This document shows, one piece after another, positions 2,951 to 63,308 of a stretch of DNA of 64,000 bases. Position 1 is the stretch's first letter; the number at the start of each line of letters is the position of its first letter. The notes below the pieces were generated by a model that was given only the letters and a program-made list of their open reading frames with translations, did not search any database and had not been told where the DNA came from. This stretch comes from an uncultured Clostridia bacterium (lineage in GTDB: Bacteria > Bacillota > Clostridia > Christensenellales > Borkfalkiaceae): positions 86,614-150,613 of the forward strand of contig CAKQSB010000005.1 in NCBI GenBank assembly GCA_934271735.1. The letters are read 5' to 3'. The translations under genes were made by a program, and so were the position numbers.

Positions 2951-2969
2951 TCTATAAGTCGATTATCGG
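2951..2969 (+). repeat. Copy of the dispersed motif CTATAAGTCGATTAT (intergenic, copA/GDPD spacer).
   Basis: tctataagtcgattatcgg. Confidence 0.7.
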
Positions 2970-3001
2970 TATATTTTTGTTTATTTTTCAAAGCCGCTTT
3001 A

Positions 3002-3781
3002 TCACGGTCTTATTATCTCGAAAATATAATTGTCGGCGAATTTTTCCGCTTTTTTTCTATCCTCGTCGTTACGGATAGTCCAGGTTATAACCCGTCTGTT
3101 TTTGCTCATTCTTTTCGAAACGGGGATATACTCCACGTTCATATTCATAAAATCGGGTCTTACGGTAAAATTAAAAAACGCCATACCGAGAAGCTTGTCC
3201 GCAAAAAAAGACAACTGTTTGTGTCTGCCTTTGTCGATAAGCTGACCTCTTATGAAATCGGGGCGTTTTTTGCGAAACTCGCGCATAATGAACGGGTCGA
3301 AGGACTGAACTACGAAATCGCCCTTATAACCGTCGAGCCTTTTTATAACCTCGTCTACGATAACGCCTTTCGTCCTCTGCGATTTAAGCTCGATAACAAC
3401 GGGCGTTCTGCCGTTCACGAATTTTAAAAAGTCGTCGAAAAGGGGGATTTTCTCCGTCGTTCCCGCAAGCGAAAGACTTTCGACCTCTTCGAGCGTTTTG
3501 TCCCATATCAGCGAATCCGCGCCCGTCATACGCTTTAAATTATCGTCGTGAAAACAAACGAGGGCGTTATCTAAGGTGAGCTGAATATCCATTTCTATCG
3601 GATAGCCGTTTTCTATCGCCGCTTCGTACGCTTTAAAACTGTTCTCGGGGATTCCGTTTTCTATGTCGTGCAAACCTCTGTGAGCAACGGGGGTTTTCAA
3701 AAGCCAGTGATTTTCGTCAATTCTTTGCGTCATTTTCCTTCTCTCCGCCGAGATTATAAACCCGATCCCGAAGTTTGTCAA
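3002..3781 (-). CDS. Glycerophosphodiester phosphodiesterase (GDPD family).
   Basis: 259 aa. VAHRGLHD...PENS...E.D N-terminal GDPD catalytic signature. Confidence 0.8.
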   Translation of the reverse strand: MTNFGIGFIISAERRKMTQRIDENHWLLKTPVAHRGLHDIENGIPENSFKAYEAAIENGYPIEMDIQLTLDNALVCFHDDNLKRMTGADSLIWDKTLEEVESLSLAGTTEKIPLFDDFLKFVNGRTPVVIELKSQRTKGVIVDEVIKRLDGYKGDFVVQSFDPFIMREFRKKRPDFIRGQLIDKGRHKQLSFFADKLLGMAFFNFTVRPDFMNMNVEYIPVSKRMSKNRRVITWTIRNDEDRKKAEKFADNYIFEIIRP

Positions 3782-3943
3782 ATCTTTTCGGGGTCGGGCT
3801 TAAAAAACTTGATTTTTTCTCCCGCTTTGTATATAATATATTCTGAGTATTTTTATAACAAAAATTAACCGCCATAGCGAAAAAACGGCGGCAAACAAAT
3901 ATTGAACTCAACCGAACTTACTTTTTTAAAGCGAGGACGATAA

Positions 3944-5764
3944 ATGGCGATAACAACCAAGAACAATATCAGAAACTTTTGCATAATAGCCCATATAGAC
4001 CACGGCAAATCTACGCTGGCGGACAGAATTATGGAGCTTACCGGTCAGGTTGCCGAGAGAGATATGGAAGATCAGCTCCTCGACTCTATGGACCTCGAAA
4101 GAGAAAGGGGCATAACCATAAAGCTCACGCCCGTCAGAATGGCGTATAAAGCCAAGGACGGACAGGATTATATTTTCAATCTTATCGACACCCCGGGACA
4201 CGTCGACTTCACATATGAAGTTTCCCGTTCTCTCGCCGCGTGCGAGGGGGCGATACTTATTGTCGACGCAACGCAGGGAATCGAGGCTCAGACCCTCGCC
4301 AACTGCTATCTTGCGCTTGATAACAATCTCGAAATCGTACCCGTAATCAATAAAATCGACCTTGCCTCCGCCGATCCGGACGAGACTGCGAAAGAAATCG
4401 AAGACGTAATCGGGCTGGACGGCTCTAACGCTCCGAGAATTTCCGCCAAAAACGGAATCAATATCGACCAGGTTCTGGAACAGATAGTAACCCTTATTCC
4501 GCCGCCGAAAGGCGACGACGACGCGCCTCTCAAAGCCCTTATTTTCGACAGTTATTACGATAATTTCAAAGGCGTTATCTGCTTTGTGAGAATTATGGAC
4601 GGTACCGTCGGCCAAGGTACGAGAATAAAGACATTTGCGGGGAGCAAGCAGTTCGACGTTACGGAAGTCGGCACGTTCAACCCCGGGCTTAAGCCGAAGA
4701 AGACGCTTTCCGCGGGCGAAGTCGGTTATATCGCCGCGAGTATCAAAAGCATAGAGGATATCGCCGTGGGCGATACGATTACGGACGCCGACAATCCCGC
4801 GCCCGTTCCCCTTCACGGCTACAAAAAAGTTCAACCCGTCGTGTTCTCGGGTATTTACCCGCTCGACGGCTCAAAATTCAACGACTTAAAAGAGGCTCTT
4901 TTAAAACTCAAATTGAACGACGCCTCTCTCACTTTCGAACCCGATAATTCCGACGCCTTAGGCTTCGGTTTCAGATGCGGATTTTTAGGACTTCTGCATA
5001 TGGAAATAATTCAGGAAAGAATCGAAAGGGAGTTCGATATCGATATAATCACGACCGCTCCGTCCGTTTCCTACCATATTTACAAGACGGACGGCGAAAT
5101 GCTTATCGTCGATAACCCGAGCAAGTTCCCCGACGTTTCGTATATCGATTACGCCGAAGAACCGATAATAACCGCGAATATTTTCACTCCGCCCGAGTAC
5201 GTGGGCGCGATTATGGAGCTTTGCCAGGACAAGCGCGGCGTTTTCACCGATATGACTTATCTCGACGCAAAGCGAGTAAGACTTAACTACACTCTCCCCT
5301 TAAACGAAATTATTTTCGACTTTTTCGACGGCTTAAAGAGCCGCACGAGGGGCTACGCTTCTTTCGACTACGAACTTTCGGGATATCAGAAAAGCGAACT
5401 CGTAAAACTCGATATGCTTTTAAACGGCGAAGTTTGCGACGCGCTTTCGATTATCGTTCACAAGGACAAGGCTTACGCCCGCGGGCGCGCGCTTGCGGAA
5501 AGACTTAAGGACGTTATTCCCCGCCAGCTTTTCGAGATACCCATTCAGGCGGCTATCGGCGGAAAAATCATCGCGAGAGAAACCGTCAAAGCTCTCAGAA
5601 AGGACGTTCTCGCCAAGTGCTACGGCGGCGACATAACGAGAAAGAAAAAGCTTCTCGAAAAACAGAAAGAGGGCAAAAAGAAAATGCGCCAGCTCGGCAG
5701 CGTGGAAGTTCCGAGCGAAGCGTTTATGTCGATTCTTAAAATCGACAGCAGCGATAACAAATAA
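3944..5764 (+). CDS. lepA: Elongation factor 4 (LepA).
   Basis: 606 aa. [10 protein letters not shown]1 motif, DTPGH, NKID, and the typical LepA C-terminal domain. Confidence 0.95.
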
Positions 5765-5765
5765 G

Positions 5766-5786
5766 CCGTTAATCGACTTATAGACG
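5766..5786 (-). repeat. Dispersed motif copy in reverse orientation, 2 bp after the lepA stop.
   Basis: ccgttaatcgacttatagacg. Confidence 0.7.
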
Positions 5787-5836
5787 AGTTTTTAAAGGTT
5801 GCAGACAAACTTTAAACAACCGCAAAGAGGATAAAA

Positions 5837-6946: not shown

Positions 6947-7006
6947 AAATTTTTTTCTAGACGCATCAAAAAAAGCACAATTACACCCGAAGATTAAAAG
7001 GATAAA

Positions 7007-11605: not shown

Positions 11606-12838
11606 ATGAAAAATCTTAAAGGAAGATGCGTTTTCGCTCAATCGGGCGGACCTACCACGGTTATAAACGCGAGTATTGCGGGCGGACTTCTGGAGGCTCT
11701 CGACAGCGAAAACATCACGGGCGTTTTGTGCGCTCATCACGGAATAAAAGGCGTTCTGGACGAGGACTTTTTCGATATTTCGGCGGAAGACAGAGCCGAG
11801 TTGGAAGCTCTCAAATACACGCCCGCTTCGGCGTTCGGTTCGGTCAGATATAAGCTCAAAAATCCCGCCGAGGACGATTCCGATTATCGCAGAATTTTGG
11901 AGGTTTTCAAAAAATACGACGTTCGTTATTTTTTCTATAACGGCGGCAACGACAGTATGGATACCTGCGATAAAATCTCGAAATATATGCAGAAATCGGG
12001 TTACGATATGAACGTTATCGGTATTCCGAAAACAATCGATAACGACCTTTGCGGCACAGACCACTGCCCCGGCTACGGCAGCGCGGCGAAATACATAGCC
12101 AACTCCGTTATGGAAGTGAACAGAGACGCCGAGATTTACTATTCCCCGCTTGTCATAATCGTGGAGATTATGGGCAGAAACGCGGGCTGGCTCACCGCGG
12201 CAAGCAGACTTGCTTCCGTAAACGGCGACGGCGCCGACCTTATTTATCTTCCCGAAGTTCCTTTCTGTTACGAGAAATTTTTGAGAGACGTTAAAAAGGT
12301 AGTGGACGAAAAAAATCACTGCGTCGTAGCGGTTTCCGAGGGAATACGTTTTGCGGACGGCAGATACGTCGGCGAAGACGGCAGCTCGGTGGACGATTTC
12401 GGACATTCTCAGCTCGGCGGCGTTTGTTCGGCTTTGAAAGCGCAGGTCAAAACGCTCGGAATAAAGTGCAAGGCTATCGAACTTAACATTCTGCAACGCT
12501 GCGCGGCGCACTGCGCTTCGGAAACGGACATTGAGGAGTCATTTTCGGCAGGGCGTTATGCCGTTAAAAAAGCCATAGAAGGCGAAACCGACAAGATGAT
12601 CGGTTTTAGAAGAAAGGGCGGAAACAATTACGAAATCGAATACGTTGCCGAACCGCTTTCCTCCGCGGCGAACGCCGAAAAGAAAATCCCTGCCGAATGG
12701 ATAACGGAAGACGGCACGAGCCTTACCGAAGATTTTGTTTCCTATGCTCTTCCCCTTATTTCGGGCGAACCCAAACGCAGGCTCAAAAACGGACTTCCCG
12801 AATACGCAAAGCTTAAATTCGTAAAGATTAAGCTTTAA
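11606..12838 (+). CDS. Second phosphofructokinase paralog (long-form, possibly PPi-dependent).
   Basis: 410 aa. GGPTTVINAS, GGNDS and PKTIDNDL PFK-family motifs. Longer, divergent paralog directly after pfkA. Confidence 0.7.
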   Translation: MKNLKGRCVFAQSGGPTTVINASIAGGLLEALDSENITGVLCAHHGIKGVLDEDFFDISAEDRAELEALKYTPASAFGSVRYKLKNPAEDDSDYRRILEVFKKYDVRYFFYNGGNDSMDTCDKISKYMQKSGYDMNVIGIPKTIDNDLCGTDHCPGYGSAAKYIANSVMEVNRDAEIYYSPLVIIVEIMGRNAGWLTAASRLASVNGDGADLIYLPEVPFCYEKFLRDVKKVVDEKNHCVVAVSEGIRFADGRYVGEDGSSVDDFGHSQLGGVCSALKAQVKTLGIKCKAIELNILQRCAAHCASETDIEESFSAGRYAVKKAIEGETDKMIGFRRKGGNNYEIEYVAEPLSSAANAEKKIPAEWITEDGTSLTEDFVSYALPLISGEPKRRLKNGLPEYAKLKFVKIKL

Positions 12839-12845
12839 AAACTTA

Positions 12846-12862
12846 CCTATAAGTCGATTATC
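12846..12862 (+). repeat. Dispersed motif copy immediately 5' of the PFK/aspS terminator. A degenerate inverted partner (cgattatccgatttatata) lies 3' of the hairpin at about 12909-12928.
   Basis: cctataagtcgattatc. Confidence 0.7.
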
Positions 12863-12866
12863 ATAA

Positions 12867-12908
12867 TAAAACCCCGTCAAAGAGATTTTTCTCCCGACGG
12901 GGTTTTCT
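12867..12908. terminator. Bidirectional rho-independent terminator between convergent PFK-2 and aspS.
   Basis: aaaaccccgtc...gacggggtttt hairpin with an A-run 5' and a T-run 3'. Confidence 0.65.
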
Positions 12909-12956
12909 ATTGTTTCGATTATCCGATTTATATAACAGTAATTTTTGTTAAAACAA

Positions 12957-14910: not shown

Positions 14911-15993
14911 CTACTCGTATACTCTTTCGAATCGTTTAAGCCCCGTAAGGATTTCGTAGGAAATCGTACCGCAGGCGTTCGCCATATCTTCGGCGGTAAG
15001 CGTTTTTCCGCCCTGACTGCCGATAAAAACCACCTCGTCGCCCGCTTTAACGCTTTTGTCAACCAACGCGAAACAATAGTCCATACAAACGCTGCCGACG
15101 ATTTTCCGTCTTTTTCCGCCGACAAGAACGTTTCCGCCGGTAAACTTACGCAAAATTCCGTCCCCGTAGCCCGCGGAAACCGTAGCTATATAACAATCTT
15201 TTTCGGCGATAAATTTTCCGCCGTAACCGACCGTCTCGCCCTTTTTAACTTTCGCCGCCCTCGAAACGTAGCTTTTCAGCGTAAGGCACGGTTTAACGCC
15301 CGCCGCGCCGTAGCCGTAAATCCCGATCCCGAAGCGCACCATATCGAAACGATATTTTTCTTCGACAAACTCCGCCGTGGAAGAAATATGTTTTATCGCG
15401 CCCGAAAAATTTTCGTCGCCGAGCTTTAAAAACGATAAGAATTTTTCATACTGCTTTTCGTTTCTCGCCTTATTCTCCCCGTCGAAAAAATGCGAATAAA
15501 CGCCCTTTATCGTCACCGTTCGGCATAAATTGACCGCGTTAATCGACTTATAGACGGCTTTTTCGGTTTTAATCCCCATTCGGTTCATACCCGTATCGAG
15601 ACATATATGCACGTATGCCGAAACGTTCATATCTTCACTTACGCGTATAATTTCGTTAAGCTCGGAAGGTGATGAAACACTGATTTCGATTTTCTTTAAA
15701 ATACATCTTCCGATTTCTTTCCCCGTAACTCTCGCAAGGCATAAAATCGGCTTAGCCGTTATTTCCCTCGCCCTTTCCGCTTCTTCGAGGGTTGCCGTAA
15801 CGAAATAATCGGCGGAACTTTCCAGAGCTTTGATAACTTCTCTTTCGCCGTGACCGTAAGCGTCGGCTTTAACGACGGCGGCAGAGAGAACGCCGCGCGG
15901 AAGTTTCGACTTCAACAAATCGAAATTATAAACAAGATTTTTTAAATTTATACAGATTTTACCCCTCATACTCTTCCCGAAAATCACATTCAA
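14911..15993 (-). CDS. alr: Alanine racemase.
   Basis: 360 aa. VVKADAYGHG PLP-lysine motif. Confidence 0.9.
   Translation of the reverse strand: MNVIFGKSMRGKICINLKNLVYNFDLLKSKLPRGVLSAAVVKADAYGHGEREVIKALESSADYFVTATLEEAERAREITAKPILCLARVTGKEIGRCILKKIEISVSSPSELNEIIRVSEDMNVSAYVHICLDTGMNRMGIKTEKAVYKSINAVNLCRTVTIKGVYSHFFDGENKARNEKQYEKFLSFLKLGDENFSGAIKHISSTAEFVEEKYRFDMVRFGIGIYGYGAAGVKPCLTLKSYVSRAAKVKKGETVGYGGKFIAEKDCYIATVSAGYGDGILRKFTGGNVLVGGKRRKIVGSVCMDYCFALVDKSVKAGDEVVFIGSQGGKTLTAEDMANACGTISYEILTGLKRFERVYE
15535..15558 (-). repeat. Dispersed motif copy inside the alr coding sequence, in-frame Y-K-S-I-N.
   Basis: Plus strand cgcgttaatcgacttatagacggc. The gene reads gcc gtc tat aag tcg att aac. Confidence 0.7.
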
Positions 15994-22936: not shown

Positions 22937-22994
22937 AACCCGTTTATAAATCCGATTGACCGAAAAAATCGCGGTTAATCGACTTATAGGCGGG
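22937..22994. repeat. Near inverted pair: a full dispersed-motif copy (22973-22994) facing a degenerate partner that lacks the central GTCG (22937-22960), forming a hairpin downstream of metK.
   Basis: cccgtttataaatccgattgacc … ggttaatcgacttataggcggg. Confidence 0.65.
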
Positions 22995-23064
22995 TTTTTG
23001 CTTATACATAACATTAACGCGGCGGTTTGCAAAACGCAAACCGCCGCGTTAAAATTTTTTAAGT

Positions 23065-34167: not shown

Positions 34168-35121
34168 TTAAATTTCCACGTCGTTCAAAAGCTGCTCGTC
34201 GTTTTCGCGAAGCTCCTTGGGAACGATTATGTTGTCGTAATCGATGAAATATCTTTTAACGTTTATCGTGTAATAATCGATCAGTCTCATACAAACCGTC
34301 ATAAGGGTGAAGAACGCCGCGATAAGAACCGATCCCGCGCCGAGCGTAAACACGCCCATCGATATAAACAGGTATACGTATATGAGATTTACCGACAAAT
34401 ACGCGGAGAACATTCTCCAGAAATATTTTTTGCCGGGGTGAAGTCCTTTTATAAACGCCTGCTTAACGCCGAGGCCTCCGACGATCATATTCGCCATAAC
34501 CTGACTTAAACAGGACGAATAAATACCTACCGAAAATGCCAGAATACACACGCCTAAAAACACGACGATTACCGTTAAGTAAGGGGCTAAAAATCTGAAC
34601 AAAATAAACTCCACAAAAAAGACCACGGCGTAGTAAACGATAGCCAAAACCGCGTCTATAAGTTGATAAACGACGATTTTCTTCAAATTTTCGAACATAA
34701 CTCCGAGATACCCTCTGTGCGATAAACTCGACATATATCCGTCGACTAAAATCATCAGAGTACAGTCGCTCAGCCCTGCGAAAAATCTGTAAAGATAAAC
34801 GATCAGAACGCAGATAAGCGCGGCTATGACGATACTGCCGACGTTAGCCGAAATATACGCGAGAAACTCGTTGAAATGCGCGGTGAGGTTGGACGAATTC
34901 GTCGCCGAAACTCCGCTCTGCCCTTTTAAAAGAGCTTTTATGATTTCCGCGATATCCTGCAAAACGGGTTTAAGCTGTTCGATAAACGGCGTTAAACTGA
35001 CGTTTAACGTAAACCACACCGCAGTTGCGAAAAGCGCGAAAATAATCGTTTTATAAAGAATATTTTTAAATACAAGCCCGAAGTTTCCTATGGCTATTTT
35101 AAACGCGTTGATTACCCGCAA
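34168..35121 (-). CDS. Multi-pass integral membrane protein of unknown function.
   Basis: 317 aa with several hydrophobic helices. No recognised catalytic motif. Confidence 0.55.
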   Translation of the reverse strand: MRVINAFKIAIGNFGLVFKNILYKTIIFALFATAVWFTLNVSLTPFIEQLKPVLQDIAEIIKALLKGQSGVSATNSSNLTAHFNEFLAYISANVGSIVIAALICVLIVYLYRFFAGLSDCTLMILVDGYMSSLSHRGYLGVMFENLKKIVVYQLIDAVLAIVYYAVVFFVEFILFRFLAPYLTVIVVFLGVCILAFSVGIYSSCLSQVMANMIVGGLGVKQAFIKGLHPGKKYFWRMFSAYLSVNLIYVYLFISMGVFTLGAGSVLIAAFFTLMTVCMRLIDYYTINVKRYFIDYDNIIVPKELRENDEQLLNDVEI

Positions 35122-35207
35122 AACTTCTCTCCTCCGCCGCTTTGTTTCCGACCGATAATTTAAAACGTTTTCTTCGGCTTTCTTTTTAAGCGGCTCGTTA
35201 TAACCCT

Positions 35208-35225
35208 ATATAATCGATTATATAA
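35208..35225. promoter_or_regulatory. Perfect 18 bp palindrome TATATAATCGATTATATA, about 85 bp upstream of the membrane-protein gene start.
   Basis: Read directly. Looks like a G-less symmetric variant of the dispersed TATAAGTCGATTAT motif. Confidence 0.3.
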
Positions 35226-35383
35226 TATTTTTATTTTTTTTGCAAGAAATTTATAACGATTTATTTTTTCGGCGTAATTTATAGCCTTTCGCCAGGCAAA
35301 ACGGGGCATAAAAATACGCGGATTTCGGAAAAATTTTCCGAAATCCGCGTAAAAAAATCTTATAAATCTTTTAAAAGATTAAA

Positions 35384-46398: not shown

Positions 46399-48999
46399 AT
46401 GTTATCGGAAATGCAGGCGAAAGCCGTAAAAGAGTTTGACAGAAACATTTTAATGCTCGCAAGAGCCGGTACGGGCAAGACGTATACCGTGGCGCAGAAA
46501 ATCGTCGAGGCGGATAAACTCGGTATAGACGCCGATAAAATTCTGTGTCTCACGTTCACCGTGAAAGCCGCCGACGAGCTTAAGGACGATATTATGAAAT
46601 CCTGTGGCGATTTCCGCCCGGAGGTCTATACGATACACGGATTTTGTTATAAACTTATGCGGGAATACGGACGGAAAACGGGAAAATTTTCCGATAAGCA
46701 GATTGCCGACGAAATCGACGAAGGCGAGATTTTAAAGGCTGTTTTAAACGATTATATCGCTTCGGGAGACTATAAAACGGCGGACGGATTCGTTCCCACG
46801 CTCACGAAAAACCTCGTTAAAGCCGTTTCCATGATAAAACACCGCCGCGCGGAATCGGGTTATAACTATTTTTCGCCGAGCGGCTACGGCGCGGCGATAA
46901 ATTCGCTCGCGGCAAGCAGCAAAGAATTCAGAGACTGTTTCGTCGTCAAAAAAGGAGCGGCGAGATACACCGACGAAAATCTTATCGGTTTTTTGAAAGC
47001 CAAGGGTTCGGAATTTATGGAGAAATACCGCTTTGTTTTAAACTCCTCCGCCCTTTGCGATTTCGACGATTTAATCTTCTCCGCAAAGGAAATAGTTTCG
47101 GACATCAACTATCAAAAGCCCGCCTATAAGTTGATTATCGTGGATGAAATGCAGGATACGAGCTTTTATGAGTACGAGATTATGAAATACTTTTTCAAAA
47201 ACGCGAACGTGCTTATGTGCGGCGACGAATACCAGACGATTTACGGCTGGAGAGGGTCGAAACCGTTCGAGATAATCGATGACTTCAAAAGAAACTATAA
47301 CCCTCTCGTTATAAATCTCGACAAAAACAGGCGTTCCGCGCCCGTTCTCTCTTATGCCGCCGCATACTATCTCAAATCGGCTTTCGGCGCAAAAACCGAA
47401 CTCCCGCCCGCGGGCGAAATCCCGGACGAAGATAAAATCGATATCGTCGGTTGCAAGGACGCGAAAGACGAAGCGAAATTCGTTTTCGAAAAGGTCGGCG
47501 CGTTTAAAGGCGAAGCTTCGGAAATCTGCGTTATGGCGCGTTCCAACAGATATATTGCCGATCTTTACAGAGAGCTTACGGAAATCAACTCCTCTTTGCC
47601 CGCCGAGAACAGACTTGCTTTTTTCACGGCCGACACTCATTTCCAATTTTACAAAAAACCGATAATCAAAGACGCGCTCGCTTTTTTAAGGCTTATTTTA
47701 AACCCCGACGACGAAGCTTCGTTTTTAAGAATAGCTCCGAAATGCGTTAAAACCGTTACCTGCGAAATGATCGCGGCTTTGAACGATTATTCCTCGTTAG
47801 GGCTTTCCGCGGGACAATTTCTGTCCGACGAAGTATATCGTTTTTCCGATTACTACGAGCCGCTTTTATACGCTTACGACAAAGGCGAAATAATCGTTTA
47901 CGACCTCGAAACGACGGGGCTCGATCTCGATAACGACGAAGCCATTCAGATTTCCGCCGTGAAAACGGGCAAAAACGGGATAAAAGAAACGTTTAACGAG
48001 TTCATTCTCCCCGAAATCGAAATAAAAAGTTCCGCCGTTTCCGTCCACGGTTACGACAAGGAATACATAAAAGCTCACGGCGGCAGGAACGCAAAAGAGG
48101 TGCTGAAAGATTTCTGCGCCTTTACGAAAGGCTGCGTTCTTATCGGGCATAACAGCTCCTCTTTCGACGATATCATTCTGGAAAGAGAGCTGAAATCGTA
48201 CTCTTTGCCCCACTCCTTTCCTTACCGCTACGACACGCTTAAAATCGCCGCTCTTTTAAAGCCGCAGACGGGCGATTATAAACTCGAAACGCTCTGCAAG
48301 GCTTTCGATATAAAGAACGTCCGCGCTCACGACGCTTTTTCGGACGTATCGGCAACCGAACAGGTTCTTAAAGTTTTTATCGAAAAATACCTTTACCCCA
48401 CAAGACAGGCGAGAAAGACCGTCACCGAACGATATGCCGACGTTTTCAAAGGTTTTTACGACCTTATATATACAATGAAAGCCTTGCTTTTGAAAAACGA
48501 TGTTTTAACGCTTATCAAAGAGATCGGCGAAACGCTCGGGCTTAACCAGCCGAAATCCGCAGCCGCGGCTATGGCGGACAAGGAATCTTTAAACGATTTA
48601 TACCGCGCGCTCAAAGGTTATATAGGAAACAACGAACCGCTCAGTTTCTTAAAATCCTTTTTGCGGGACGTTTCCCTTTCGGGAAGTCAGATGGACGTTA
48701 TCGTAAAGAAATTCAACAAAGTTCCGCTCGTCACCGTTCACCAGTCCAAAGGGTGCGAGTTCAAAGAGGTGATTCTCGTCGGTATGGGCGAAAACGAATT
48801 CCCGTCCTATAAAGCCGTGGAAACGCATAACGAAGAAGAGGAAAAGAGGGTCTTCTACGTTGCCATAACGCGCGCGAAAGAAAAGCTCGTCATAACTTAT
48901 CCGAAATACAAAACGTTTTACGACGTGAGTTACCGCCGCGCTCCCTCGCCCTTTTTATCCCTCCTGCCCGACGACGCCGTGAACGAAATCAAACGGTAA
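46399..48999 (+). CDS. UvrD/PcrA-family SF1 helicase with an embedded DnaQ-like DEDDh 3'-5' exonuclease domain.
   Basis: 866 aa. Helicase motifs: AGTGKT (I), TFTVKAADEL (Ia), IVDEMQD (II), GDEYQTIYGWRGS (III), 2B-domain DALAFLRLILNPDDEASFLRI, VHQSKGCEF (V), YVAITRAKEKL (VI). Exonuclease motifs: VYDLETTGLD (Exo I), IGHNSSSFD (Exo II), AHDAFSDVSAT (Exo III, DEDDh), inserted between the 2B region and motif V. Confidence 0.85.
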   Translation: MLSEMQAKAVKEFDRNILMLARAGTGKTYTVAQKIVEADKLGIDADKILCLTFTVKAADELKDDIMKSCGDFRPEVYTIHGFCYKLMREYGRKTGKFSDKQIADEIDEGEILKAVLNDYIASGDYKTADGFVPTLTKNLVKAVSMIKHRRAESGYNYFSPSGYGAAINSLAASSKEFRDCFVVKKGAARYTDENLIGFLKAKGSEFMEKYRFVLNSSALCDFDDLIFSAKEIVSDINYQKPAYKLIIVDEMQDTSFYEYEIMKYFFKNANVLMCGDEYQTIYGWRGSKPFEIIDDFKRNYNPLVINLDKNRRSAPVLSYAAAYYLKSAFGAKTELPPAGEIPDEDKIDIVGCKDAKDEAKFVFEKVGAFKGEASEICVMARSNRYIADLYRELTEINSSLPAENRLAFFTADTHFQFYKKPIIKDALAFLRLILNPDDEASFLRIAPKCVKTVTCEMIAALNDYSSLGLSAGQFLSDEVYRFSDYYEPLLYAYDKGEIIVYDLETTGLDLDNDEAIQISAVKTGKNGIKETFNEFILPEIEIKSSAVSVHGYDKEYIKAHGGRNAKEVLKDFCAFTKGCVLIGHNSSSFDDIILERELKSYSLPHSFPYRYDTLKIAALLKPQTGDYKLETLCKAFDIKNVRAHDAFSDVSATEQVLKVFIEKYLYPTRQARKTVTERYADVFKGFYDLIYTMKALLLKNDVLTLIKEIGETLGLNQPKSAAAAMADKESLNDLYRALKGYIGNNEPLSFLKSFLRDVSLSGSQMDVIVKKFNKVPLVTVHQSKGCEFKEVILVGMGENEFPSYKAVETHNEEEEKRVFYVAITRAKEKLVITYPKYKTFYDVSYRRAPSPFLSLLPDDAVNEIKR
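47122..47140 (+). repeat. Variant motif copy (TTG instead of TCG) inside the helicase coding sequence, in-frame Y-K-L-I-I.
   Basis: gcctataagttgattatcg. Confidence 0.4.
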
Positions 49000-50941: not shown

Positions 50942-53044
50942 ATGAAAGACACTAAGGTTGAAAAGCTTTTCGCGGAAAACGTCTTTACGGACGTTGAAAT
51001 GGAAAAGAGAATTTCCAAAGAAGCATACGACAGTTACAGAAAAACGGTCGACGAAAACGTGCCGCTCGCCAAAAAAGCCGCGGACGAAATCGCCAAAGCG
51101 ATGATGGCATGGGCAATGGAAAAAGGCGCAACGCATTACACTCACTGGTTTCAACCTATGACGGGCGTTACCGCCGAAAAACACGAAGCTTTCATCGAGC
51201 CCGACGGAAAAGGCGGCGTCGTTACCAAATTTTCAGGCAAAACGCTCGTTAAGGGCGAACCCGACGCGTCGAGTTTCCCCAGCGGCGGACTCCGCTCCAC
51301 TTTCGAAGCGAGAGGTTACACGGCTTGGGATCCTTCGTCCAAAGCGTTCGTAAGAGACGGTTCTTTGTATATCCCCACAATTTTCTGCTCCTACGGCGGC
51401 GAATCGCTCGATAAAAAAACTCCGCTTTTGAAAAGTATCGAAGCTTTGAACAAACAAGTTCTCAGAATCATGCGCCTTTTCGGCGATAAAGAAACCAAAA
51501 AGATTATTTCCACCGTCGGTGCGGAACAGGAATATTTCCTTGTCGACAAGGGAGTTTACGAAGAAAGGCTCGACCTCGCGACTTGCGGAAGAACGCTTTT
51601 CGGAGCTCACCCCCCGAAAGGTCAGGAACTTGAAGACCATTATTTCGGAAAAATCAAACAGCGCGTATGGGATTATATGAGCGATCTCGACGAAGAGCTC
51701 TGGAAACTCGGAGTTTACGCGAAAACAAAGCATAACGAAGTCGCGCCCGCTCAGCACGAACTCGCCTGCGTTTACACTCCGTCCAACGACGCGGTAGACC
51801 ACAACCAGATAGTTATGTCGGTTATGAAATCGGTTGCGAACCGCCACGGAATGGTTTGTCTGCTCCACGAAAAGCCGTTCGACGGCATCAACGGAAGCGG
51901 CAAACACAACAACTGGTCTATGGCGACCGATCGCGGCGAAAATCTACTCGATCCGACCGACCACCCCGAAAACAACCCGAGATTTCTCCTTATCCTCGTC
52001 GCGGTTATAACGGCTGTGGATAAATATCAGGATCTGCTCCGTATTTCGGTAGCTTCCGCCGGCAACGACCACAGACTCGGAGCGAACGAAGCGCCCCCGG
52101 CAATCGTTTCTATGTTTATCGGCGAGGAGCTTGAAAACATTCTCTCTTCTATCGAACGCGGCGCAAAATACAGCGAGATAAAAGCCGAAGTTTTGAAAAT
52201 CACGAGCGGACTTATCCCCAAATTCGATAAGGACAAGACAGACAGAAACAGAACCTCGCCGTTCGCGTTTACGGGCAATAAATTCGAATTCCGTATGGTC
52301 GGCTCGGACATGTCGGTTTCGGCGGCGAACGTCGTTATAAACACCATCGTTTCCGACGTTTTAAGCGATTTTGCGGACGAGCTTTCTTCCGCGAAAGATT
52401 TCGACGCGGCGGTCATCGATATTATCAGAAAGAGCTATTCCGAACATAAACGTATCGTTTTCAACGGAAACAACTACTCCGACGAATGGGTTAAAGAAGC
52501 CGAAAAACGCGGACTTTTAAATCTTAAGACGACCGTCGACGCGCTTCCTTATTATCTCAAGAAAAAGAACATCGATTTGTTCGTCCGCCACGGTGTTTTA
52601 ACCGAGACCGAAGTTAAATCGAGATACGAAATACAGCTCGACTCTTACGTTAAGATTATCGAAGTGGAAGCGAAAACAATGCTGAATATGGCAAGAAGAG
52701 AAATCCTTCCCGCCGCGATAGGTTATTCGGACGAACTCGCAAACGGACTTGCGGCTAAGGCTTCTATAGGCTTGGACATCGAAAAAACCGCCGATAAACG
52801 GCTTATAGACAGGCTTATGAAGCTTAATGATAAACTTTTGAAAGCGATAGAGAAGCTCGAAAAAGACATTAAGGCCGCCGCCACAAAGAAGGAAAGCTTA
52901 GAGATTGCCGAATATCACAGAGACGTGATTATCCCCGATATGGATAAGTTGAGAGCGATTTCGGACGAACTCGAAACGATTGTAGACAAAGCGTACTGGA
53001 ATTTCCCGACGTACACGGAAATCCTCTCAAGCGTTATGTATTAA
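50942..53044 (+). CDS. glnN: Glutamine synthetase type III.
   Basis: 700 aa, GSIII length. GS catalytic-domain signatures. 14 bp after pyrG. Confidence 0.85.
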   Translation: MKDTKVEKLFAENVFTDVEMEKRISKEAYDSYRKTVDENVPLAKKAADEIAKAMMAWAMEKGATHYTHWFQPMTGVTAEKHEAFIEPDGKGGVVTKFSGKTLVKGEPDASSFPSGGLRSTFEARGYTAWDPSSKAFVRDGSLYIPTIFCSYGGESLDKKTPLLKSIEALNKQVLRIMRLFGDKETKKIISTVGAEQEYFLVDKGVYEERLDLATCGRTLFGAHPPKGQELEDHYFGKIKQRVWDYMSDLDEELWKLGVYAKTKHNEVAPAQHELACVYTPSNDAVDHNQIVMSVMKSVANRHGMVCLLHEKPFDGINGSGKHNNWSMATDRGENLLDPTDHPENNPRFLLILVAVITAVDKYQDLLRISVASAGNDHRLGANEAPPAIVSMFIGEELENILSSIERGAKYSEIKAEVLKITSGLIPKFDKDKTDRNRTSPFAFTGNKFEFRMVGSDMSVSAANVVINTIVSDVLSDFADELSSAKDFDAAVIDIIRKSYSEHKRIVFNGNNYSDEWVKEAEKRGLLNLKTTVDALPYYLKKKNIDLFVRHGVLTETEVKSRYEIQLDSYVKIIEVEAKTMLNMARREILPAAIGYSDELANGLAAKASIGLDIEKTADKRLIDRLMKLNDKLLKAIEKLEKDIKAAATKKESLEIAEYHRDVIIPDMDKLRAISDELETIVDKAYWNFPTYTEILSSVMY

Positions 53045-53106: not shown

Positions 53107-53132
53107 TTTTAAAAGAAATATTTCACGTATTA

Positions 53133-55451: not shown

Positions 55452-55664
55452 ACATTTTCTCCGCTGACCGAATTTTTTCGTTTCGGCTCAATAAGCCGAA
55501 CAGGGGTTGAAACCCGTTTTTCGTTATCGGCTGTATTCACAGTATAAAGAATAGAAACGAGGTTGTCAACCGATTTTTAACCAAAATAAAAGGATTTCAC
55601 ATTGTTTTTTTTGCCTGATTTTTCCGATAAAATTAGGGAAAAAGGCATTAAACGACGGAAACCC

Positions 55665-55688
55665 TCGTATAAGTCGATTAACGGGCGT
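55665..55688 (+). repeat. Dispersed motif copy, intergenic just downstream of the trpS stop.
   Basis: ctcgtataagtcgattaacgggcg. Confidence 0.7.
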
Positions 55689-55706
55689 AAGCAAATAACG
55701 CGCGCT

Positions 55707-59579: not shown

Positions 59580-59582
59580 TCA

Positions 59583-60599
59583 TTATTTCAAGCGTTTTAG
59601 ACCGCTTTTGACGTTTTCGGAAATTTTAACGTCCGTCGTCGCCTTATTTATTTCGCTTTTTGCGTCCGCGATAAGCCGTTTACTCAGAAACGGGCTTAAC
59701 GTATACTCGTTTTTCGAGAAATCGTACCCGTAAAAATCGACTTCATCACTCGTCTTTCCGTCCGTCCGCATCATACCGATTTTATAAAGTTTTTTCTGAA
59801 CGTTTTCGGACAAAAGCAGCTCGATCGCAAGCTTGCAATAGCGATATTTTTCATCGTTTTTTGTCGTTATAGCGATATATTGAACAAGGTCGGAATACCC
59901 CTCGAGCGGGTGTACGGTAAATTCGTCTTTTTTCTTTTCTATTCGCTTTATATCCCTTTGCGTACCGAGAAGAACGGCGTTTTCCTCGGAAAGAAAACGG
60001 GAATAAGCGTCTTTCGGCAGAAGATAAACGGCGTTTGCCGTTATCCCGAGATGTTTAAGCGATAAAACGGGTAGAATGTTTTCTCCGTCCGAAACGATAA
60101 GATTTTCTATCGTCTTTGCAGAATTGCTTGCAAAAAGTCCGTCTATAAGTCGATTATCTCCGCTTTTAGCGATTAAATAATAACCGCCGAAGCACCAAGG
60201 CGCGGCGACAACTCTTCCGTTTAACTCACCGCCGAAAAAGTTTTTGAAAGGCAATTCTCTCGCATACTTTAAAGTTTCATCCGCGCCGACGCCGAAAGAA
60301 ATCAGATCGGGGATTTCGCCTTTTTCAAAAGCTTTTTCCATACTTTCCGTCGTCTGAGTTTTAACGAACGTAACGACGCCGTCGTCGCTTAAAGGTTTTA
60401 ACGAGGATGAAAGAAAATCGGCCCTCGAACCCGTTCCGCCCTCAAACGTGTCTATATGCCACACGGTAAGCACGGTTTTATATTGCCCCGAAGAAAACGG
60501 GGTGTTTTTCTCTCTCGTTTTCGGCGCGGCAAAAAAAATCACGAAAACCGCCGTGAAAACGCAGAGCGCGAACGAAACCGCCCTTATTACTGTTTTCAT
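59583..60599 (-). CDS. Membrane-anchored extracytoplasmic protein, possibly solute-binding-protein-like, of unknown function.
   Basis: 338 aa. N-terminal TM/signal segment. 4 bp from murB. Confidence 0.5.
   Translation of the reverse strand: MKTVIRAVSFALCVFTAVFVIFFAAPKTREKNTPFSSGQYKTVLTVWHIDTFEGGTGSRADFLSSSLKPLSDDGVVTFVKTQTTESMEKAFEKGEIPDLISFGVGADETLKYARELPFKNFFGGELNGRVVAAPWCFGGYYLIAKSGDNRLIDGLFASNSAKTIENLIVSDGENILPVLSLKHLGITANAVYLLPKDAYSRFLSEENAVLLGTQRDIKRIEKKKDEFTVHPLEGYSDLVQYIAITTKNDEKYRYCKLAIELLLSENVQKKLYKIGMMRTDGKTSDEVDFYGYDFSKNEYTLSPFLSKRLIADAKSEINKATTDVKISENVKSGLKRLK
60139..60162 (+). repeat. Dispersed motif copy inside the 59583..60599 coding sequence. The gene strand reads G-D-N-R-L-I-D.
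   Basis: ccgtctataagtcgattatctcc. Confidence 0.7.
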
Positions 60600-61424: not shown

Positions 61425-61489
61425 AATCTGCCACCGTAATTTATTTTGCCTTTTTGTTTTATGTCTCCATTGTACACCAAATCCGCCCC

Positions 61490-61632
61490 ATAGTCAAGCA
61501 GTCGCGCCGAATTACGTATTTCCCGCGATTCGCAAATTCGGCGTTTCGCGAGCAACCGTTTATCGGCGTCGCAAAATGTATGACGGAACTTTTGATTCTC
61601 TTGCCGAACGTTCATGCCGTCCGCATAATTAA
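61490..61632 (+). pseudogene. Remnant of an IS481/IS3-like transposase N-terminus (HTH segment only).
   Basis: In-frame translation …AIRKFGVSRATVYRRRKMYDGTFDSLAERSCRPHN*. It resembles the conserved FGVS..TVY.W.KRY…L.DRSRRPH.SP HTH block of IS481-family transposases and is truncated immediately after. Confidence 0.4.
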
Positions 61633-62059
61633 CTATTTTTCAGCTCGAAAATATTATTTCGAATTTCTTTAATTACTACACCCCGACAGGTGAATATCTT
61701 TGCGACAGCAAAGTATCTAAGCTCTCGCCGAAAGCTGAAAACGGCAAACAAAGAGCCTTCATAAACCGATTTAAGGCGATAGAACGTTGATTCTACCGCC
61801 CCTTTTCGTAATACTCAAAAAGCAGTTCGCGAACTCTTCGCAAACTGCCTTTTGAAAAATATATGATAAGGGGGAAAATGATGAGCTGTATAAGCTGTCA
61901 ATTGCTATCTGCTGGGGGTTTCACTCTCCGCGCTTTCGCACAAGCCCTTCGTCAATTGACACCTATATAATACTATATAGTAACACTTTTGTAAATCGAA
62001 ATCAAGATATTTTTATGATTTGTGTCTTATTTTGTAACTTATGTATCTTATTTTACATT

Positions 62060-62458
62060 TTAACGTCGATTTGAGCCGATTTTTGTCATTTTTTTGCTCT
62101 CGTCGACCGTAAATACCGACCCCGTTCTTTTTATCGGGTAAGAAAGACAAGCCTCTTCGCTTTTGCCCGAATAATATCTTACGCCGACGTAAATTTCCGA
62201 TTTCTTTTCGTAAATAGAGAAAATCCCGTCAGCGGGGAGCGGATGACCGTCGGAAAACTTTTCCAAGCCGTCTTCAAAAGCGAGAAAAGCGTCCGCACCG
62301 ACAATCGCCACGCAGTAGCCTATGAATTTTCTTAAATCCGCGTGTTTTAAACTTTCGCACGAAACGATAAAAAGCCTCGACGCGTCCGTAACGGAACGTT
62401 TATGCACGCACGCCGCGATATACTCCGCCATCTCCTCAGGACTTCTGATAATCCGCAT
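62060..62458 (-). CDS. Hypothetical protein (132 aa).
   Basis: ORF only. No recognisable motif. Confidence 0.35.
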   Translation of the reverse strand: MRIIRSPEEMAEYIAACVHKRSVTDASRLFIVSCESLKHADLRKFIGYCVAIVGADAFLAFEDGLEKFSDGHPLPADGIFSIYEKKSEIYVGVRYYSGKSEEACLSYPIKRTGSVFTVDESKKMTKIGSNRR

Positions 62459-62581
62459 ATCCGCTCTCCTTTTACATAGTATGTAAAACGGATATAAAAA
62501 GGCAACAAAAAACCGCGTCGGGCTGAGCGATTTTAATGCTCGCCGCGCGGTGACTTTATATTCATATCGGTCTTTATATAA

Positions 62582-63277
62582 TTACTGTATAATCGCGTGC
62601 TTTCTTCTCTTCAACTCGGCAACGAGTTCTTGTTCGGTTTTTACGGCGTTTTCGAGAATAACCCCCGAAACGCAGTCCTCCGTTTCGTGGAAATCGCTTC
62701 CCGCAGTCATTATAAGTCCGTTTTCTTCGGCAAATTTTTTTGCCATGTCATTACGGCTGTTCTGGCGCGGGTTGCCGTTAAGAACTTCAACGCCGTCCAA
62801 AACATCGGGATTGCGATAATTTATCATACTTCTGAACGGGTGAGCCTGAGAAACAAGATATCCGTTTTCCCTGCAATAGTTGCGCATACAGACGGTGTTT
62901 TCTTTCAAGAGCCTTTGAAAATCGCCGATTTTATCGGGCGTTACGCCGTAGATAAGAAATTCGGCATTGAAAGCGTCCTCTATATAATAGGATGTTTCGT
63001 CGGGCATAAACTCCATACCGAAAAAAACGTCTATACTTTTTTTTGCGCACTCCGTCTTTAATGTAAGGTAATGTTTTATAAAATTTTCGTTATACTCGTC
63101 GAAATCTTTAAATTTATAGTATTCGCGAAGAAACGAGTTATAGTGACTCGTGTAAACTATTCCGTTATAACCGTTTTTTGAATAAATTTCGGCTATCGTT
63201 TTTTCGTCCGTCATCGCGCAGGGAGACGTTCCCAAAACGTGCAAGTGCATTTCAAGTTTATACATATTCAGCCTCAA
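62582..63277 (-). CDS. PHP-domain-like metal-dependent phosphoesterase (putative).
   Basis: 231 aa. MHLHVLGTSPCA…YTSHYN…SDFHE His-rich PHP-like pattern. Confidence 0.5.
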   Translation of the reverse strand: MRLNMYKLEMHLHVLGTSPCAMTDEKTIAEIYSKNGYNGIVYTSHYNSFLREYYKFKDFDEYNENFIKHYLTLKTECAKKSIDVFFGMEFMPDETSYYIEDAFNAEFLIYGVTPDKIGDFQRLLKENTVCMRNYCRENGYLVSQAHPFRSMINYRNPDVLDGVEVLNGNPRQNSRNDMAKKFAEENGLIMTAGSDFHETEDCVSGVILENAVKTEQELVAELKRRKHAIIQ

Positions 63278-63285
63278 AAAACGCA

Positions 63286-63308
63286 GTTAATCGACTTATA
63301 GCCCGCCT
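63286..63308 (-). repeat. Dispersed motif copy, intergenic between the PHP-like and cupin genes.
   Basis: agttaatcgacttatagcccgcc. Confidence 0.7.

Follow-up and report, generated by a model that had tools for sequence, protein, structure and literature searches.

A short word recurs throughout the 64,000-nt stretch of Clostridia DNA examined in this study (the window), and the question that it raises is whether it represents a DNA uptake signal, a binding site for a chromosome-organising protein, or a repeat that spreads or acts in some other way. The core, TATAAGTCGATTA, occurs exactly nine times (2953+, 5770-, 12848+, 15540-, 22976-, 33349+, 55668+, 60144+ and 63288-). This bears out the claim of the sequence-only reading that at least nine copies, far beyond chance, are present; in 100 dinucleotide-preserving shuffles of the window, matches with up to one mismatch averaged 0.19, with a maximum of 2. 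Two additional copies carry one mismatch (47125+, previously placed at 47122, and 1220-, previously missed), and another two carry two mismatches within family-type flanks (34657+ and 52795-). The conserved flanks noted earlier are real but extend over a longer stretch than was given, with AAAA at -11 to -8, C at -1, WCG at +13 to +15 and TTT at +21 to +23, so that the element measures 36 bp: AAAA-N7-TATAAGTCGATTA-WCG-N5-TTT.

The 13-16-base word is nearly invariant and is spaced at approximately one per 5-7 kb in the source genome and in approximately 40 related species. Mutational decay is graded, with 146 perfect, 66 one-mismatch and approximately 44 two-mismatch copies above the null, and the information content of the element is far greater than that required for specifying approximately 400 sites. 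The symmetric G-less variant proposed at 35208-35225 proved to be a distinct palindrome, TATATAATCGATTATATA, and not a recurrent member of the family; palindromes of this type were found at 2 sites in 780 kb, compared to 146 canonical copies of TATAAGTCGATTA. No description of the 36-bp element was found in the literature.

Genomic context of the copies

All six intergenic exact copies in the window abut the 3' end of a gene, as the sequence-only reading had led us to expect. The copy at 2942..2977 (+; aaaagttagtcTATAAGTCGATTAtcggtatatttt) lies in the spacer 3' of a GDPD gene and 5' of a P-type ATPase gene, tandem genes that are both on the - strand; it is also found in L022, and its orthologue in L027 is perfect (CTATAAGTCGATTATCGG) within diverged flanks (82.7% identity overall). 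The copy at 5758..5793 (-) begins 6 nt past the lepA stop in the lepA-hemN spacer, antisense to both genes, and the same spacer in L022 and L073 holds a copy of the same orientation at a displaced position. Between the convergent genes pfk and aspS, the copy at 12837..12872 (+) has an A-tract that overlaps the pfk TAA stop, is followed by a canonical hairpin terminator at approximately 12871-12905, and is kept in L110 (90.5% identical overall). The copy at 22964..22999 (-) lies 77 nt 3' of the metK stop, past metK's own hairpin terminator, with a degenerate inverted partner at approximately 22943-22960. A further copy (55657..55692, +), in which G replaces C at position -1, is located 27 nt 3' of the stop of a trpS-like gene on the - strand and is antisense to it, while that at 63276..63311 (-) fills the 34-nt spacer of two tandem - strand genes.

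The coding copies claimed earlier were likewise recovered, and they sit solely in stop-free frames, as had been stated. The copy at 15528..15563 (-) is sense within alr (codon 148 of 360), where it encodes EKAVYKSINAV, and is kept in L110; because this region aligns without gaps to solved alanine racemases, the copy was made by substitution. In a PP2C/SpoIIE-domain phosphatase gene, the copy at 33338..33373 (+) is sense at codon 139 of 390 (GKRIYKSIIPL), and the copy at 60133..60168 (+) is antisense within 59583..60599 (-), an unannotated gene of 338 aa (GDNRLIDGLF). L042 has the identical 21-nt block, CCGTCTATAAGTCGATTATCT, at the latter, in a region that is only 65.7% identical overall. The C7T variant TATAAGTTGATTA (47114..47149, +) lies in a UvrD-like helicase gene just 5' of helicase motif II (QKPAYKLIIVDEMQD), has the family-type upstream flank aaaagcccgcc, and recurs in the helicase orthologue of L085. 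To these can be added the A4T variant TATATGTCGATTA (1208..1243, -) inside the P-type ATPase gene (AGYMSIKDQ); its mismatch is kept in L022 and L027, a conservation that may be due in part to protein constraint. Both two-mismatch copies are antisense inside genes: TATAAGTTGATAA (34646..34681, +) within 34168..35121, with flanks aaaaccgcgtc...acgacgatttt, and TATAAGCCGTTTA (52783..52818, -) within a gene for type III glutamine synthetase, where the family flanks read ...cctgtc / tcggcggttttt.

The context statistics, for which genes were called with a crude longest-ORF caller, show the same placement on a larger scale. Approximately 67% of copies are intergenic, although intergenic DNA accounts for only 12%, and these are nearly always beside a gene 3' end, with most copies 0-80 nt past a stop codon. 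A copy is present in 40% of convergent, 25% of tandem and 5% of divergent spacers. Approximately one third of copies are inside coding sequence, many of them mid-gene. The word had been called oriented, which is true of its asymmetric sequence but not of its arrangement in the genome: the window copies divide 6+/5-; of those compared with the gene upstream of them, 41 are sense and 49 antisense; and the coding copies divide 27/21 (sense/antisense). Such an absence of bias is as expected for a symmetric binder. The inverted partners reported earlier do exist (a near-pair at 22937-22994 and a degenerate partner at 12913-12935), but partners within 120 bp are no commoner than at random positions (141 copies examined); inverted pairing is therefore anecdotal, and the copies are solitary.

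The suggestion that the word might be conserved in related genomes was borne out, with the same word and the same flanks found in 42 species-level MAGs of the source clade (uncultured gut Clostridia/Christensenellaceae-like). Loci across these species are mostly non-orthologous, and the copies are distributed across the whole genome, on many contigs in each MAG; viral contigs lack the element. Sites turn over between species, and word variants are species-enriched in two MAGs, although a T6C 'dialect' found no confirmation in metagenome contigs. Orthologous copies remain perfect where their surroundings have diverged to 66-90% overall identity, and they appear to be under purifying selection.

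A phased A/T pattern centred on the element

Blocks of A/T recur around the element with a period of approximately 11 bp, in a two-fold symmetric pattern that has the element at its dyad, extends at least 60 bp to each side (approximately 120 bp) and is also present deep inside ORFs. A/T peaks occur at -52, -41, -30, -19 and -9.5, in the core at +2 and +11, and then at +21.5, +32, +43.5 and +55. Within the core, TATAA and ATTAW surround a 4-bp GTCG centre, and further blocks lie at approximately 16, 25, 36.5, 48 and 59.5 bp from the dyad on both sides. At distances of 26-70 bp, the flanks show spectral power at 10.5-12 bp that is higher than the null mean by a factor of 30-40, a level reached by 0 of 300 nulls; at control sites with a similar central A/T arrangement but no motif, flank phasing is much weaker. 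The phasing holds in the 59 copies whose whole +/-90 bp lies in one ORF (spectral power of 0.087/0.061, compared to a null maximum of 0.036/0.032). A weaker periodic signal is found at 71-125 bp, with weak phasing to approximately 140 bp, part of which may derive from the 11-bp periodicity that bacterial genomes show in general.

The A/T profile is two-fold symmetric about +6.5 (GT|CG), with a left/right correlation of 0.825, and the arms 14-35 bp from the dyad are reverse-complement symmetric at the base level (r = 0.82); the inner flanks, however, are direct rather than inverted repeats (CGnC ... CGnC). Past approximately 40 bp, no sequence is common to the copies (column identity of 0.27-0.29, background 0.254), so the outer arms constitute a shape or composition signal and the element cannot be regarded as a long repeat. 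At the 13 window copies, the flanks follow the profile found at non-orthologous loci (r = 0.51, reached in 0 of 1000 nulls).

Candidate explanations

We put at roughly 40% the probability that the element serves a dimeric DNA-wrapping protein as a hard-wired wrapping site; gyrase is the leading candidate for this protein. That a protein wraps DNA at the element is what we infer; that this protein is gyrase is speculative. Each copy would form the centre of a docking site at which a two-fold symmetric, probably dimeric machine bends and wraps approximately 120 bp, with the sequence-specific 36-bp centre fixing the position of wrapping and the phased A/T blocks setting narrow minor grooves against the protein surface. 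If the machine is gyrase, each copy would serve it as a strong, hard-wired site, and an extra sequence-specific adaptor may read the asymmetric word. Such sites would lie every 5-7 kb, mainly just 3' of genes, where positive supercoils accumulate during transcription, and would be tolerated inside genes in stop-free frames.

Like the element, the E. coli gyrase motif (130 bp) is symmetric, with a 36-bp centre (-16 to +19) and two arms of 10.75-bp periodicity, and gyrase cleaves the BIME-2/REP repeats (PMC6379681), of which BIME-2 are likewise dispersed, hard-wired, 3'-intergenic sites. In the E. coli consensus 133-mer, A/T blocks also flank a 4-bp cleavage centre (TAT-NNNN-ATA), with others at 19, 29.5, 38.5, 49.5 and 61 bp. 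Gyrases of three phyla have arms with 10-11-bp periodicity over approximately 120 nt and a common preference for -2A/+6T (PMC12324340); with the dyad at +6.5, the element has the gyrase-type -2A, +6T and +1G. Against gyrase, -4G/+8C and +4C are missing from the core, the inner A/T blocks lie at 16 and 25 bp and so deviate by 3-4.5 bp from the E. coli consensus register (19 and 29.5 bp), and the period of approximately 11-11.3 bp is slightly greater than 10.75 bp. Known gyrase sites (the E. coli Topo-seq motif, Mu SGS) are degenerate preferences, whereas the element has a near-invariant asymmetric 13-16-mer, which is not predicted by the indirect readout of a symmetric enzyme. The direct-repeat inner flanks, and weak phasing that exceeds the gyrase footprint, also count against it, and y-type REPs are palindromic hairpins whereas the element has none and places one third of its copies in genes. 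The earlier idea of a chromosome-organising binding-site family comes closer than the uptake analogy, but its ParB/Noc, RacA and MatP models do not fit, because their sites are short palindromes that are regionally clustered or rare, while the word here is asymmetric and its G-less palindrome is not used.

The same wrapping evidence (phasing, symmetry and window profile) applies to an alternative that we consider unlikely, namely a site for a lineage-specific, sequence-specific architectural protein (HU/IHF-like, Lrp-like or histone-like) that nucleates a wrapped nucleoprotein particle every few kb or, as a variant, intrinsically curved DNA pinning plectoneme tips or domain boundaries. A centre that is both near-invariant and asymmetric favours a dedicated protein that reads the bases directly, and the two A/T blocks around the dyad are 9 bp apart, the same distance as between the two kinks that HU/IHF-type proteins introduce. 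The core, with its upstream A-tract, matches 7 of the 9 specified positions of what we take to be the IHF consensus, WATCAANNNNTTR. IHF sites and the RIP/BIME-1 elements of enterobacteria similarly have an asymmetric WATCAANNNNTTR-like core that is preceded by an A-tract at a distance of about one helical turn, imply sharp bending and sit at operon ends. However, in the register of this match the dyad and the observed symmetry centre are approximately 7 bp apart, IHF footprints cover approximately 35 bp and not 120 bp (a three-fold difference), known nucleoid-protein sites are far more degenerate than the element, and no candidate protein has been identified. Another comparison is HIP1 (GCGATCGC) of cyanobacteria, which is also a clade-wide over-represented word in coding and non-coding DNA, maintained by selection without a mobile element behind it and of unsettled function; unlike the element, it is an 8-bp palindrome, is much denser, and lacks extended flanks and a 3'-end preference.

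Equally doubtful is the analogy with DNA uptake-enhancing sequences (DUES; DUS/USS-like), in which a competence-pilus or DNA-receptor protein of the clade would prefer word-bearing DNA, and biased uptake with recombination would spread and maintain the word within the genome and across relatives. DUS and USS, too, are short and asymmetric words that are over-represented, occur on both strands, are conserved throughout a family or order and are absent from foreign DNA. Their coding copies are also confined to permissive frames, they hold more information than is required to specify a site, and the H. influenzae USS likewise has helically phased AT tracts. The analogy accommodates the genome-wide abundance over many contigs per MAG, the sharing by 42 species and absence from viruses, the substitution origin of the alr copy, the permissive coding frames, the surplus information with graded decay, and the site turnover with species-enriched variants. 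The enrichment at gene 3' ends, with one third of copies coding, is also in keeping with DUES, which gather in permissive regions, about half of them in terminators (10.1101/2025.10.24.684340). On the other hand, inverted pairs are not enriched, unlike in intergenic DUES, and no uptake sequence is known to have a two-fold symmetric phased pattern that spans at least 120 bp across both sides, nor would a monomeric receptor need one. The density of one per 5-7 kb is below that of classical DUES (about 1 per kb, roughly 5-fold denser), which are known in Neisseriaceae and Pasteurellaceae only, with no uptake specificity known in any Gram-positive. The lack of confirmation of the T6C 'dialect' also weighs against uptake, as does the lack of competence genes in the window or sampled DNA, a sample far too small to establish their absence.

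A role at the RNA level, as a 3'-UTR motif or as a component of an intrinsic or bidirectional terminator, would explain why most copies closely follow a stop codon, with an A-tract upstream and a T-tract downstream, but is very improbable: orientation to the gene is random (41/49), many copies are mid-gene, and an Rfam search with the element gave zero matches. Flank folding with the core unpaired averages -3.7 kcal/mol, and swapped flanks fold as well (p = 0.15); canonical terminators occur in 54% of motif-bearing versus 40% of motif-free 3' regions, and their positions are evenly divided (26 before the motif, 26 after it and 20 over it).

A non-autonomous mobile repeat spreading by copying (REP/RAYT-type or a MITE remnant) could account for the many near-identical copies, the REP/BIME-like 3' intergenic preference and the approximately 5-8% of copies whose complementary flanks form strong hairpins. 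This origin is largely refuted, as there is no general hairpin or covariation, no transposase within the window and no copy in viral contigs, one third of copies are coding, the alr copy arose without an indel, and the arms share no sequence. The sequence-only view of a free-standing, clade-wide DNA-level signal, rather than a REP or MITE, is thus upheld, with copies at non-orthologous loci and with orthologous copies that outlast their surroundings, persisting at 66-77% identity.

Abundance and distribution of the 36-bp element

The exact 13-mer TATAAGTCGATTA was found nine times in the 64-kb window (2953+, 5770-, 12848+, 15540-, 22976-, 33349+, 55668+, 60144+ and 63288-), alongside two copies with one mismatch (47125+ and 1220-) and two copies with two mismatches (34657+ and 52795-), the latter pair having the same family flanks as the exact copies. 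Dinucleotide-preserving shuffles gave a mean of 0.19 matches at up to one mismatch (maximum 2), and by our own estimate approximately 0.002 exact 13-mers would be expected on both strands (128,000/4^13). The count, coordinates and gene contexts described in the sequence-only reading were essentially right. Motif density is approximately 1 per 5-7 kb, and many contigs per MAG carry copies. The window is core chromosome, containing lepA, hemN, dnaE, pfk, aspS, alr, recG and metK as well as adhE, tyrS, pyrG, glnA-III, trpS, whiA and murB, and an identical LepA is encoded on human-gut metagenome contigs (Hadza and other), adjoining the spore-germination protease gene gpr. Among the genes of the window there was no transposase, RAYT (Y1 transposase) included, and nothing of phage origin or related to competence, such as com or pilin genes.

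An alignment of 160 unique copies lengthened the element to 36 bp and provided its consensus, with positions counted from the start of the core. An A-tract (AAAA) at -11 to -8, where A is present in 80-95% of copies, is followed by a G/C-rich stretch (RnCnGnC) and then by the core, while 3' of the core there is W, then C (92% of copies), then G, and finally TTT at +21 to +23 (T in approximately 75%). The consensus is the same for intergenic and coding copies, and the information content of the motif is far above that needed for site-finding.

An exact scan with CTATAAGTCGATTAWC of one genome per species (GTDB r232) returned at least 115 tiles. Among the matches listed, 101 of 115 came from at least 42 MAG assemblies labelled Clostridia, Clostridiales or Christensenellaceae, and the motif-bearing MAGs had GC contents of 0.34-0.50 and originated from the guts of humans, goats, deer, sheep and buffalo. 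The remaining listed matches were either single matches without family flanks, which are chance matches, or matches with family flanks in bins named Acidiphilium or Helicobacteraceae, where the GC content is wrong for the taxon. The contigs concerned (loci L008, L019, L088, L096 and L021), labelled 'Acidiphilium sp.' (GC 0.36-0.43) or 'Helicobacteraceae UBA6016', have the full flanks (aaaagt..gggc). Because of these flanks and the wrong GC, the bins are probably mislabelled or contain contaminating Clostridia contigs. A phage-borne element was rejected, since the 14 single matches in 2.9 million viral contigs were without family flanks and did not exceed a rough chance estimate.

When 162 copies were compared by all-against-all BLAST with 500-bp flanks, they formed 141 clusters, and the shared clusters consisted of orthologues only. 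The motif is a genome-wide family within each species rather than one conserved site. Conservation in related genomes, which had been raised from the sequence alone, takes the form of at least 42 species-level MAGs carrying the motif at mostly unrelated loci.

Placement relative to genes and turnover of sites

Placement was determined with a crude longest-ORF gene caller on motif-selected tiles, which inflate absolute fractions, so that relative values alone are usable; with this proviso, 98 of the 146 exact copies are intergenic, in the 12% of the DNA between genes, and the share of spacers with a copy is 40% for convergent, 25% for tandem and 5% for divergent ones. A gene 3' end adjoins 90 of the 98 intergenic copies, with a median distance from stop codon to motif of approximately 20 nt, and divergent spacers hold only 3. 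Often, the upstream gene takes its TAA stop from the A-tract of the element (at 12837-12841 in the window and at other copies), several copies overlap the upstream stop via the motif's own TAA or TAG, and for eight copies the distance to the stop is exactly 9 nt. With respect to the upstream gene, 41 copies are sense and 49 antisense; the motif had been called oriented, which holds for the word itself, as it is asymmetric, but not for its genomic orientation, which is without bias.

The other 48 exact copies, one third of the total, lie within ORFs at positions distributed along the genes, 44 of them at least 30 nt from either ORF end, and are read as YKSI (23), NRLI (17), (I)SRL (4) or IDL (4), with none in a stop-containing frame. 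The confinement of coding copies to permissive frames, previously noted for the window, therefore extends to 48 copies in four stop-free frames. The alr copy (EKAVYKSINAV), the one coding copy covered by the indel test, aligns to solved alanine racemases without a gap and therefore arose by substitution, not insertion. One NagA-like gene in a related MAG (locus L063, 459-1610) contains two coding copies, one antisense (DNRLIDGF) and one sense (DYKSIIEE).

Orthologous copies stay perfect while their surroundings diverge. The window copy at 2953 is perfect at L027, a locus of a related MAG, at 82.7% identity, and L022, another such locus, has a copy in the corresponding spacer; the orthologue of the alr copy in L110 is also perfect, and L042 shares an identical 21-nt block inside a region that is only 65.7% identical. 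Sites also turn over: three species have a copy between lepA and hemN, but at displaced positions, and between hemN and dnaE L022 has a copy and L073 a copy with one mismatch, while the window lacks the motif there. A 68-bp tandem repeat (L022 2751-2958; 3.1 copies, 90% matches) adjoins the L022 orthologue of the 2953 copy and is missing from the window and L027.

Helical phasing and candidate readers of the motif

The key new result is the helically phased, two-fold symmetric distribution of A/T around the motif. Peaks of A/T are located at -52, -41, -30, -19 and -9.5 to the left of the core, at +2 (TATAA) and +11 (ATTAW) within it, and at +21.5, +32, +43.5 and +55 to its right. For flanks 26-70 bp away, spectral power in the 10.5-12-bp band is 30- to 40-fold that of the null mean, a level that 0 of 300 nulls reach, and phasing is weaker but persistent at 71-125 bp. 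Non-motif control sites that mimic the central A/T layout have much weaker phasing, while the phasing holds in 59 copies at least 90 bp deep within ORFs, and the window's 13 copies follow the same profile as non-orthologous loci (r = 0.51, 0 of 1000 nulls). The correlation between left and right A/T peaks, at 0.825, for a dyad at +6.5 (between GT and CG), from which the A/T blocks are 16, 25, 36.5, 48 and 59.5 bp distant, with a period of approximately 11-11.3 bp. Base by base, the arms show reverse-complement symmetry at 14-35 bp from the dyad (r = 0.82), CGnC direct repeats are found in the inner flanks, and more than approximately 40 bp out the copies have no shared sequence (background identity); the outer arms conserve shape or composition, not a repeat.

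The motif may be a putative wrapping site with gyrase as the leading candidate, a reading to which we assign a probability of roughly 0.4. A dimeric protein would have DNA wrapped on it at each motif, as suggested by a footprint that is both symmetric and phased and extends over at least 120 bp about a positioned centre, and by the indifference to orientation, together with the gene-end placement, the near-invariant asymmetric core and the persistence inside genes. The Topo-seq motif of E. coli gyrase is 130 bp long and symmetric about the cleavage site; its centre measures 36 bp, and its two arms, which reach out to approximately 65 bp, have an AT/GC periodicity of 10.75 bp that has been interpreted as A/T minor grooves turned towards the C-terminal domains of GyrA. 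Gyrase also cleaves 3'-intergenic BIME-2/REP repeats (PMC6379681). Gyrases of E. coli, B. anthracis and M. tuberculosis all have 10-11-bp periodic arms over approximately 120 nt and a common -2A/+6T (PMC12324340). In the published E. coli consensus 133-mer, the cleavage centre reads TAT-NNNN-ATA and the A/T blocks lie at 19, 29.5, 38.5, 49.5 and 61 bp, compared to TATAA-GTCG-ATTAW here with the blocks at 16 to 59.5 bp. The two-fold symmetry about +6.5 and the periodic arms therefore resemble the gyrase motif. The arm period differs from 10.75 bp, and three of six cleavage-core preferences are present when the dyad is set at +6.5 (-2A, +6T and +1G), the -4G/+8C and +4C preferences being missing (A occupies -4 and +8, and G occupies +4). 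The match to the gyrase motif is therefore architectural, not exact. We know of no gyrase site with an invariant asymmetric word, which suggests an extra sequence-specific reader besides gyrase.

A more doubtful proposal is that an order of gut Clostridia possesses an undescribed system of chromosome 'punctuation'. In this scheme, a protein dedicated to reading the asymmetric 16-mer would seed a wrapped nucleoprotein particle, fixed in position and at least 120 bp in extent, either alone or by recruiting gyrase; such particles would occur approximately every 5 kb, mainly at gene ends, and their requirements on DNA shape would be so strong that even the coding sequence around the sites takes on helical A/T phasing. 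An alternative that would be as novel is that the motif represents the first DNA uptake sequence outside Proteobacteria.

It is unlikely that the motif is such a DNA uptake-enhancing sequence (DUES), despite extensive parallels: abundance, clade conservation, permissive frames, 3'-end bias, absence from viruses, excess information and site turnover. DUES and the motif alike have many copies genome-wide, hundreds to thousands in the case of DUES, on both strands and far above chance, and both have coding copies that arise in place (as tested for the alr copy) in stop-free frames only. However, the symmetric long-range phasing speaks against a DUES, and the motif density is lower than that of classical DUES, which are denser than 1 per 5-7 kb. 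In addition, the intergenic copies of DUES often pair inverted as terminator stems, whereas inverted pairs are not enriched here: an inverted or direct partner within 120 bp of the motif is no commoner than at random positions, and the motif overlaps a predicted terminator in 20 of 134 motif-bearing 3' regions. The inverted pairing described in the sequence-only reading thus occurs in single cases but is not a property of the family. Hosts of DUES are naturally competent, and a specific receptor gives DNA with the sequence preference in uptake; here, a regex scan for prepilin and T2SS-ATPase signatures gave no match in approximately 840 kb, a sample too small to be informative. A literature search for an uptake sequence in Firmicutes found none, and DUES are known only from Neisseriaceae and Pasteurellaceae (10.1101/2025.10.24.684340).

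We regard a site for a non-topoisomerase architectural protein as similarly improbable. The core matches 7 of 9 positions of the IHF consensus, but an IHF site is incompatible in register with the observed dyad. ParB/Noc, RacA and MatP sites are 13-16-bp palindromes for a symmetric dimer, present in a few to tens of regionally clustered copies, and the analogy drawn with them from the sequence alone does not fit an asymmetric core that has approximately 13 copies within 64 kb of housekeeping DNA and recurs across many contigs of the individual MAGs. Sigma-70 and sigma-28-like promoters, cre/LacI-type operators and Spo0A boxes, compared by eye, are poor consensus matches, and these readings also conflict with the 3'-end preference, random orientation and near-absence from divergent spacers.

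Mobile-repeat and RNA or terminator explanations are each very improbable. REP/BIME elements were rejected on the lack of a stable hairpin, the asymmetric core and the 48 coding copies; MITEs or IS terminal repeats on the absence of an insertion in alr, arms at background identity and the 141 clusters; and a long decayed repeat on the same arms and the restriction of flank BLAST clusters to orthologues. The motif is thus a free-standing signal rather than a REP or MITE, as had been proposed. A variable-stem hairpin is not a general feature, since flank complementarity is flat and no column pair covaries; folding with the core unpaired gave a mean of -3.7 kcal/mol compared to -3.2 kcal/mol with swapped flanks (p = 0.15), strong stems were found in only 5-8% of copies, and the best-stem length was as in swapped-flank nulls. 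Canonical terminators were found in 54% of motif-bearing 3' regions compared to 40% of motif-free ones, lying before, after or over the motif in 26, 26 and 20 cases, so that the motif is not a terminator and bears no fixed relation to the transcript. An intrinsic (Rho-independent) terminator or terminator substitute was rejected on this frequency, the missing hairpin and the random orientation, and a known structured RNA on the 0 matches to Rfam 15 in the window at the gathering threshold.

The motif fails a defining test of every family considered, and an exact-string literature search for the core found no paper in the library searched. Its general kind is that of dispersed genomic recognition words, while its architecture and clade are new. 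Dispersed words with a known reader are rare (DUS/USS, Chi, KOPS, REP and parS-like sites), and each has opened part of chromosome biology. The present word is conserved in approximately 40 uncultured species of Christensenellaceae and relatives, a clade of interest in the human-gut microbiome, and is coupled to a putative wrapping signature that covers at least 120 bp and can be seen even within genes. If it is a hard-wired gyrase site, supercoil management would be encodable by a specific sequence in Firmicutes, and a defined substrate would be available for studying how gyrase and quinolones act in gut anaerobes; if it serves as an uptake signal, the view of Gram-positive transformation as sequence-blind would be overturned. 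Either way, the motif is a practical clade marker, flagging for example the Acidiphilium and Helicobacteraceae MAG contigs as probably misassigned, and a direct handle for finding a candidate DNA-binding activity (by pull-down or DAP-seq).

Variant cores and related palindromes

Variants that keep the flanks comprise 66 one-mismatch and approximately 44 two-mismatch copies above null, compared to 146 perfect copies; approximately 100 of the latter were the ascertained ones, and the true ratio of perfect to variant copies is therefore lower. Core substitutions are mostly transitions at positions 4, 6 and 7. The T6C variant TATAAGCCGATTA was found 8 times, versus 0 non-ascertained canonical copies, in two MAGs combined (JAFQEA01, loci L040 and L078; CAAGAM01, loci L047, L076 and L094). 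At 35 T6C-ascertained metagenome loci, the extra copies were canonical in 11 cases and T6C in 0. T6C may tentatively be considered a species-specific variant, comparable to the family- or species-specific dialects of DUES.

The 'G-less symmetric variant' reported at 35208 turned out to be a separate palindrome, TATATAATCGATTATATA, a perfect 18-bp palindrome at 35205-35228 that is like the motif minus its G. Such sites number 2 in 780 kb compared to 146 canonical copies, and an ancestral or alternative form of the motif was rejected because the palindrome is not recurrent. It is placed between a strong terminator (approximately 35317-35350) and the start of a gene on the minus strand (34168..35121), and looks like an operator or promoter element. 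Another perfect palindrome, GTTAATCGACCTATAGGTCGATTAAC, at 712-737 of L045 (a motif-bearing locus of a related MAG), joins two A4G-variant motif copies head to head, with one TATA common to both, and was found once among 255 loci.

The window also encodes, at 46399-48999, a UvrD-like helicase of 866 aa in which the N- and C-terminal helicase domain matches are separated by an RNase_T-type exonuclease domain (residues 499-655). Such a helicase-exonuclease fusion is unusual, and a 1-mismatch motif lies directly ahead of its helicase motif II.
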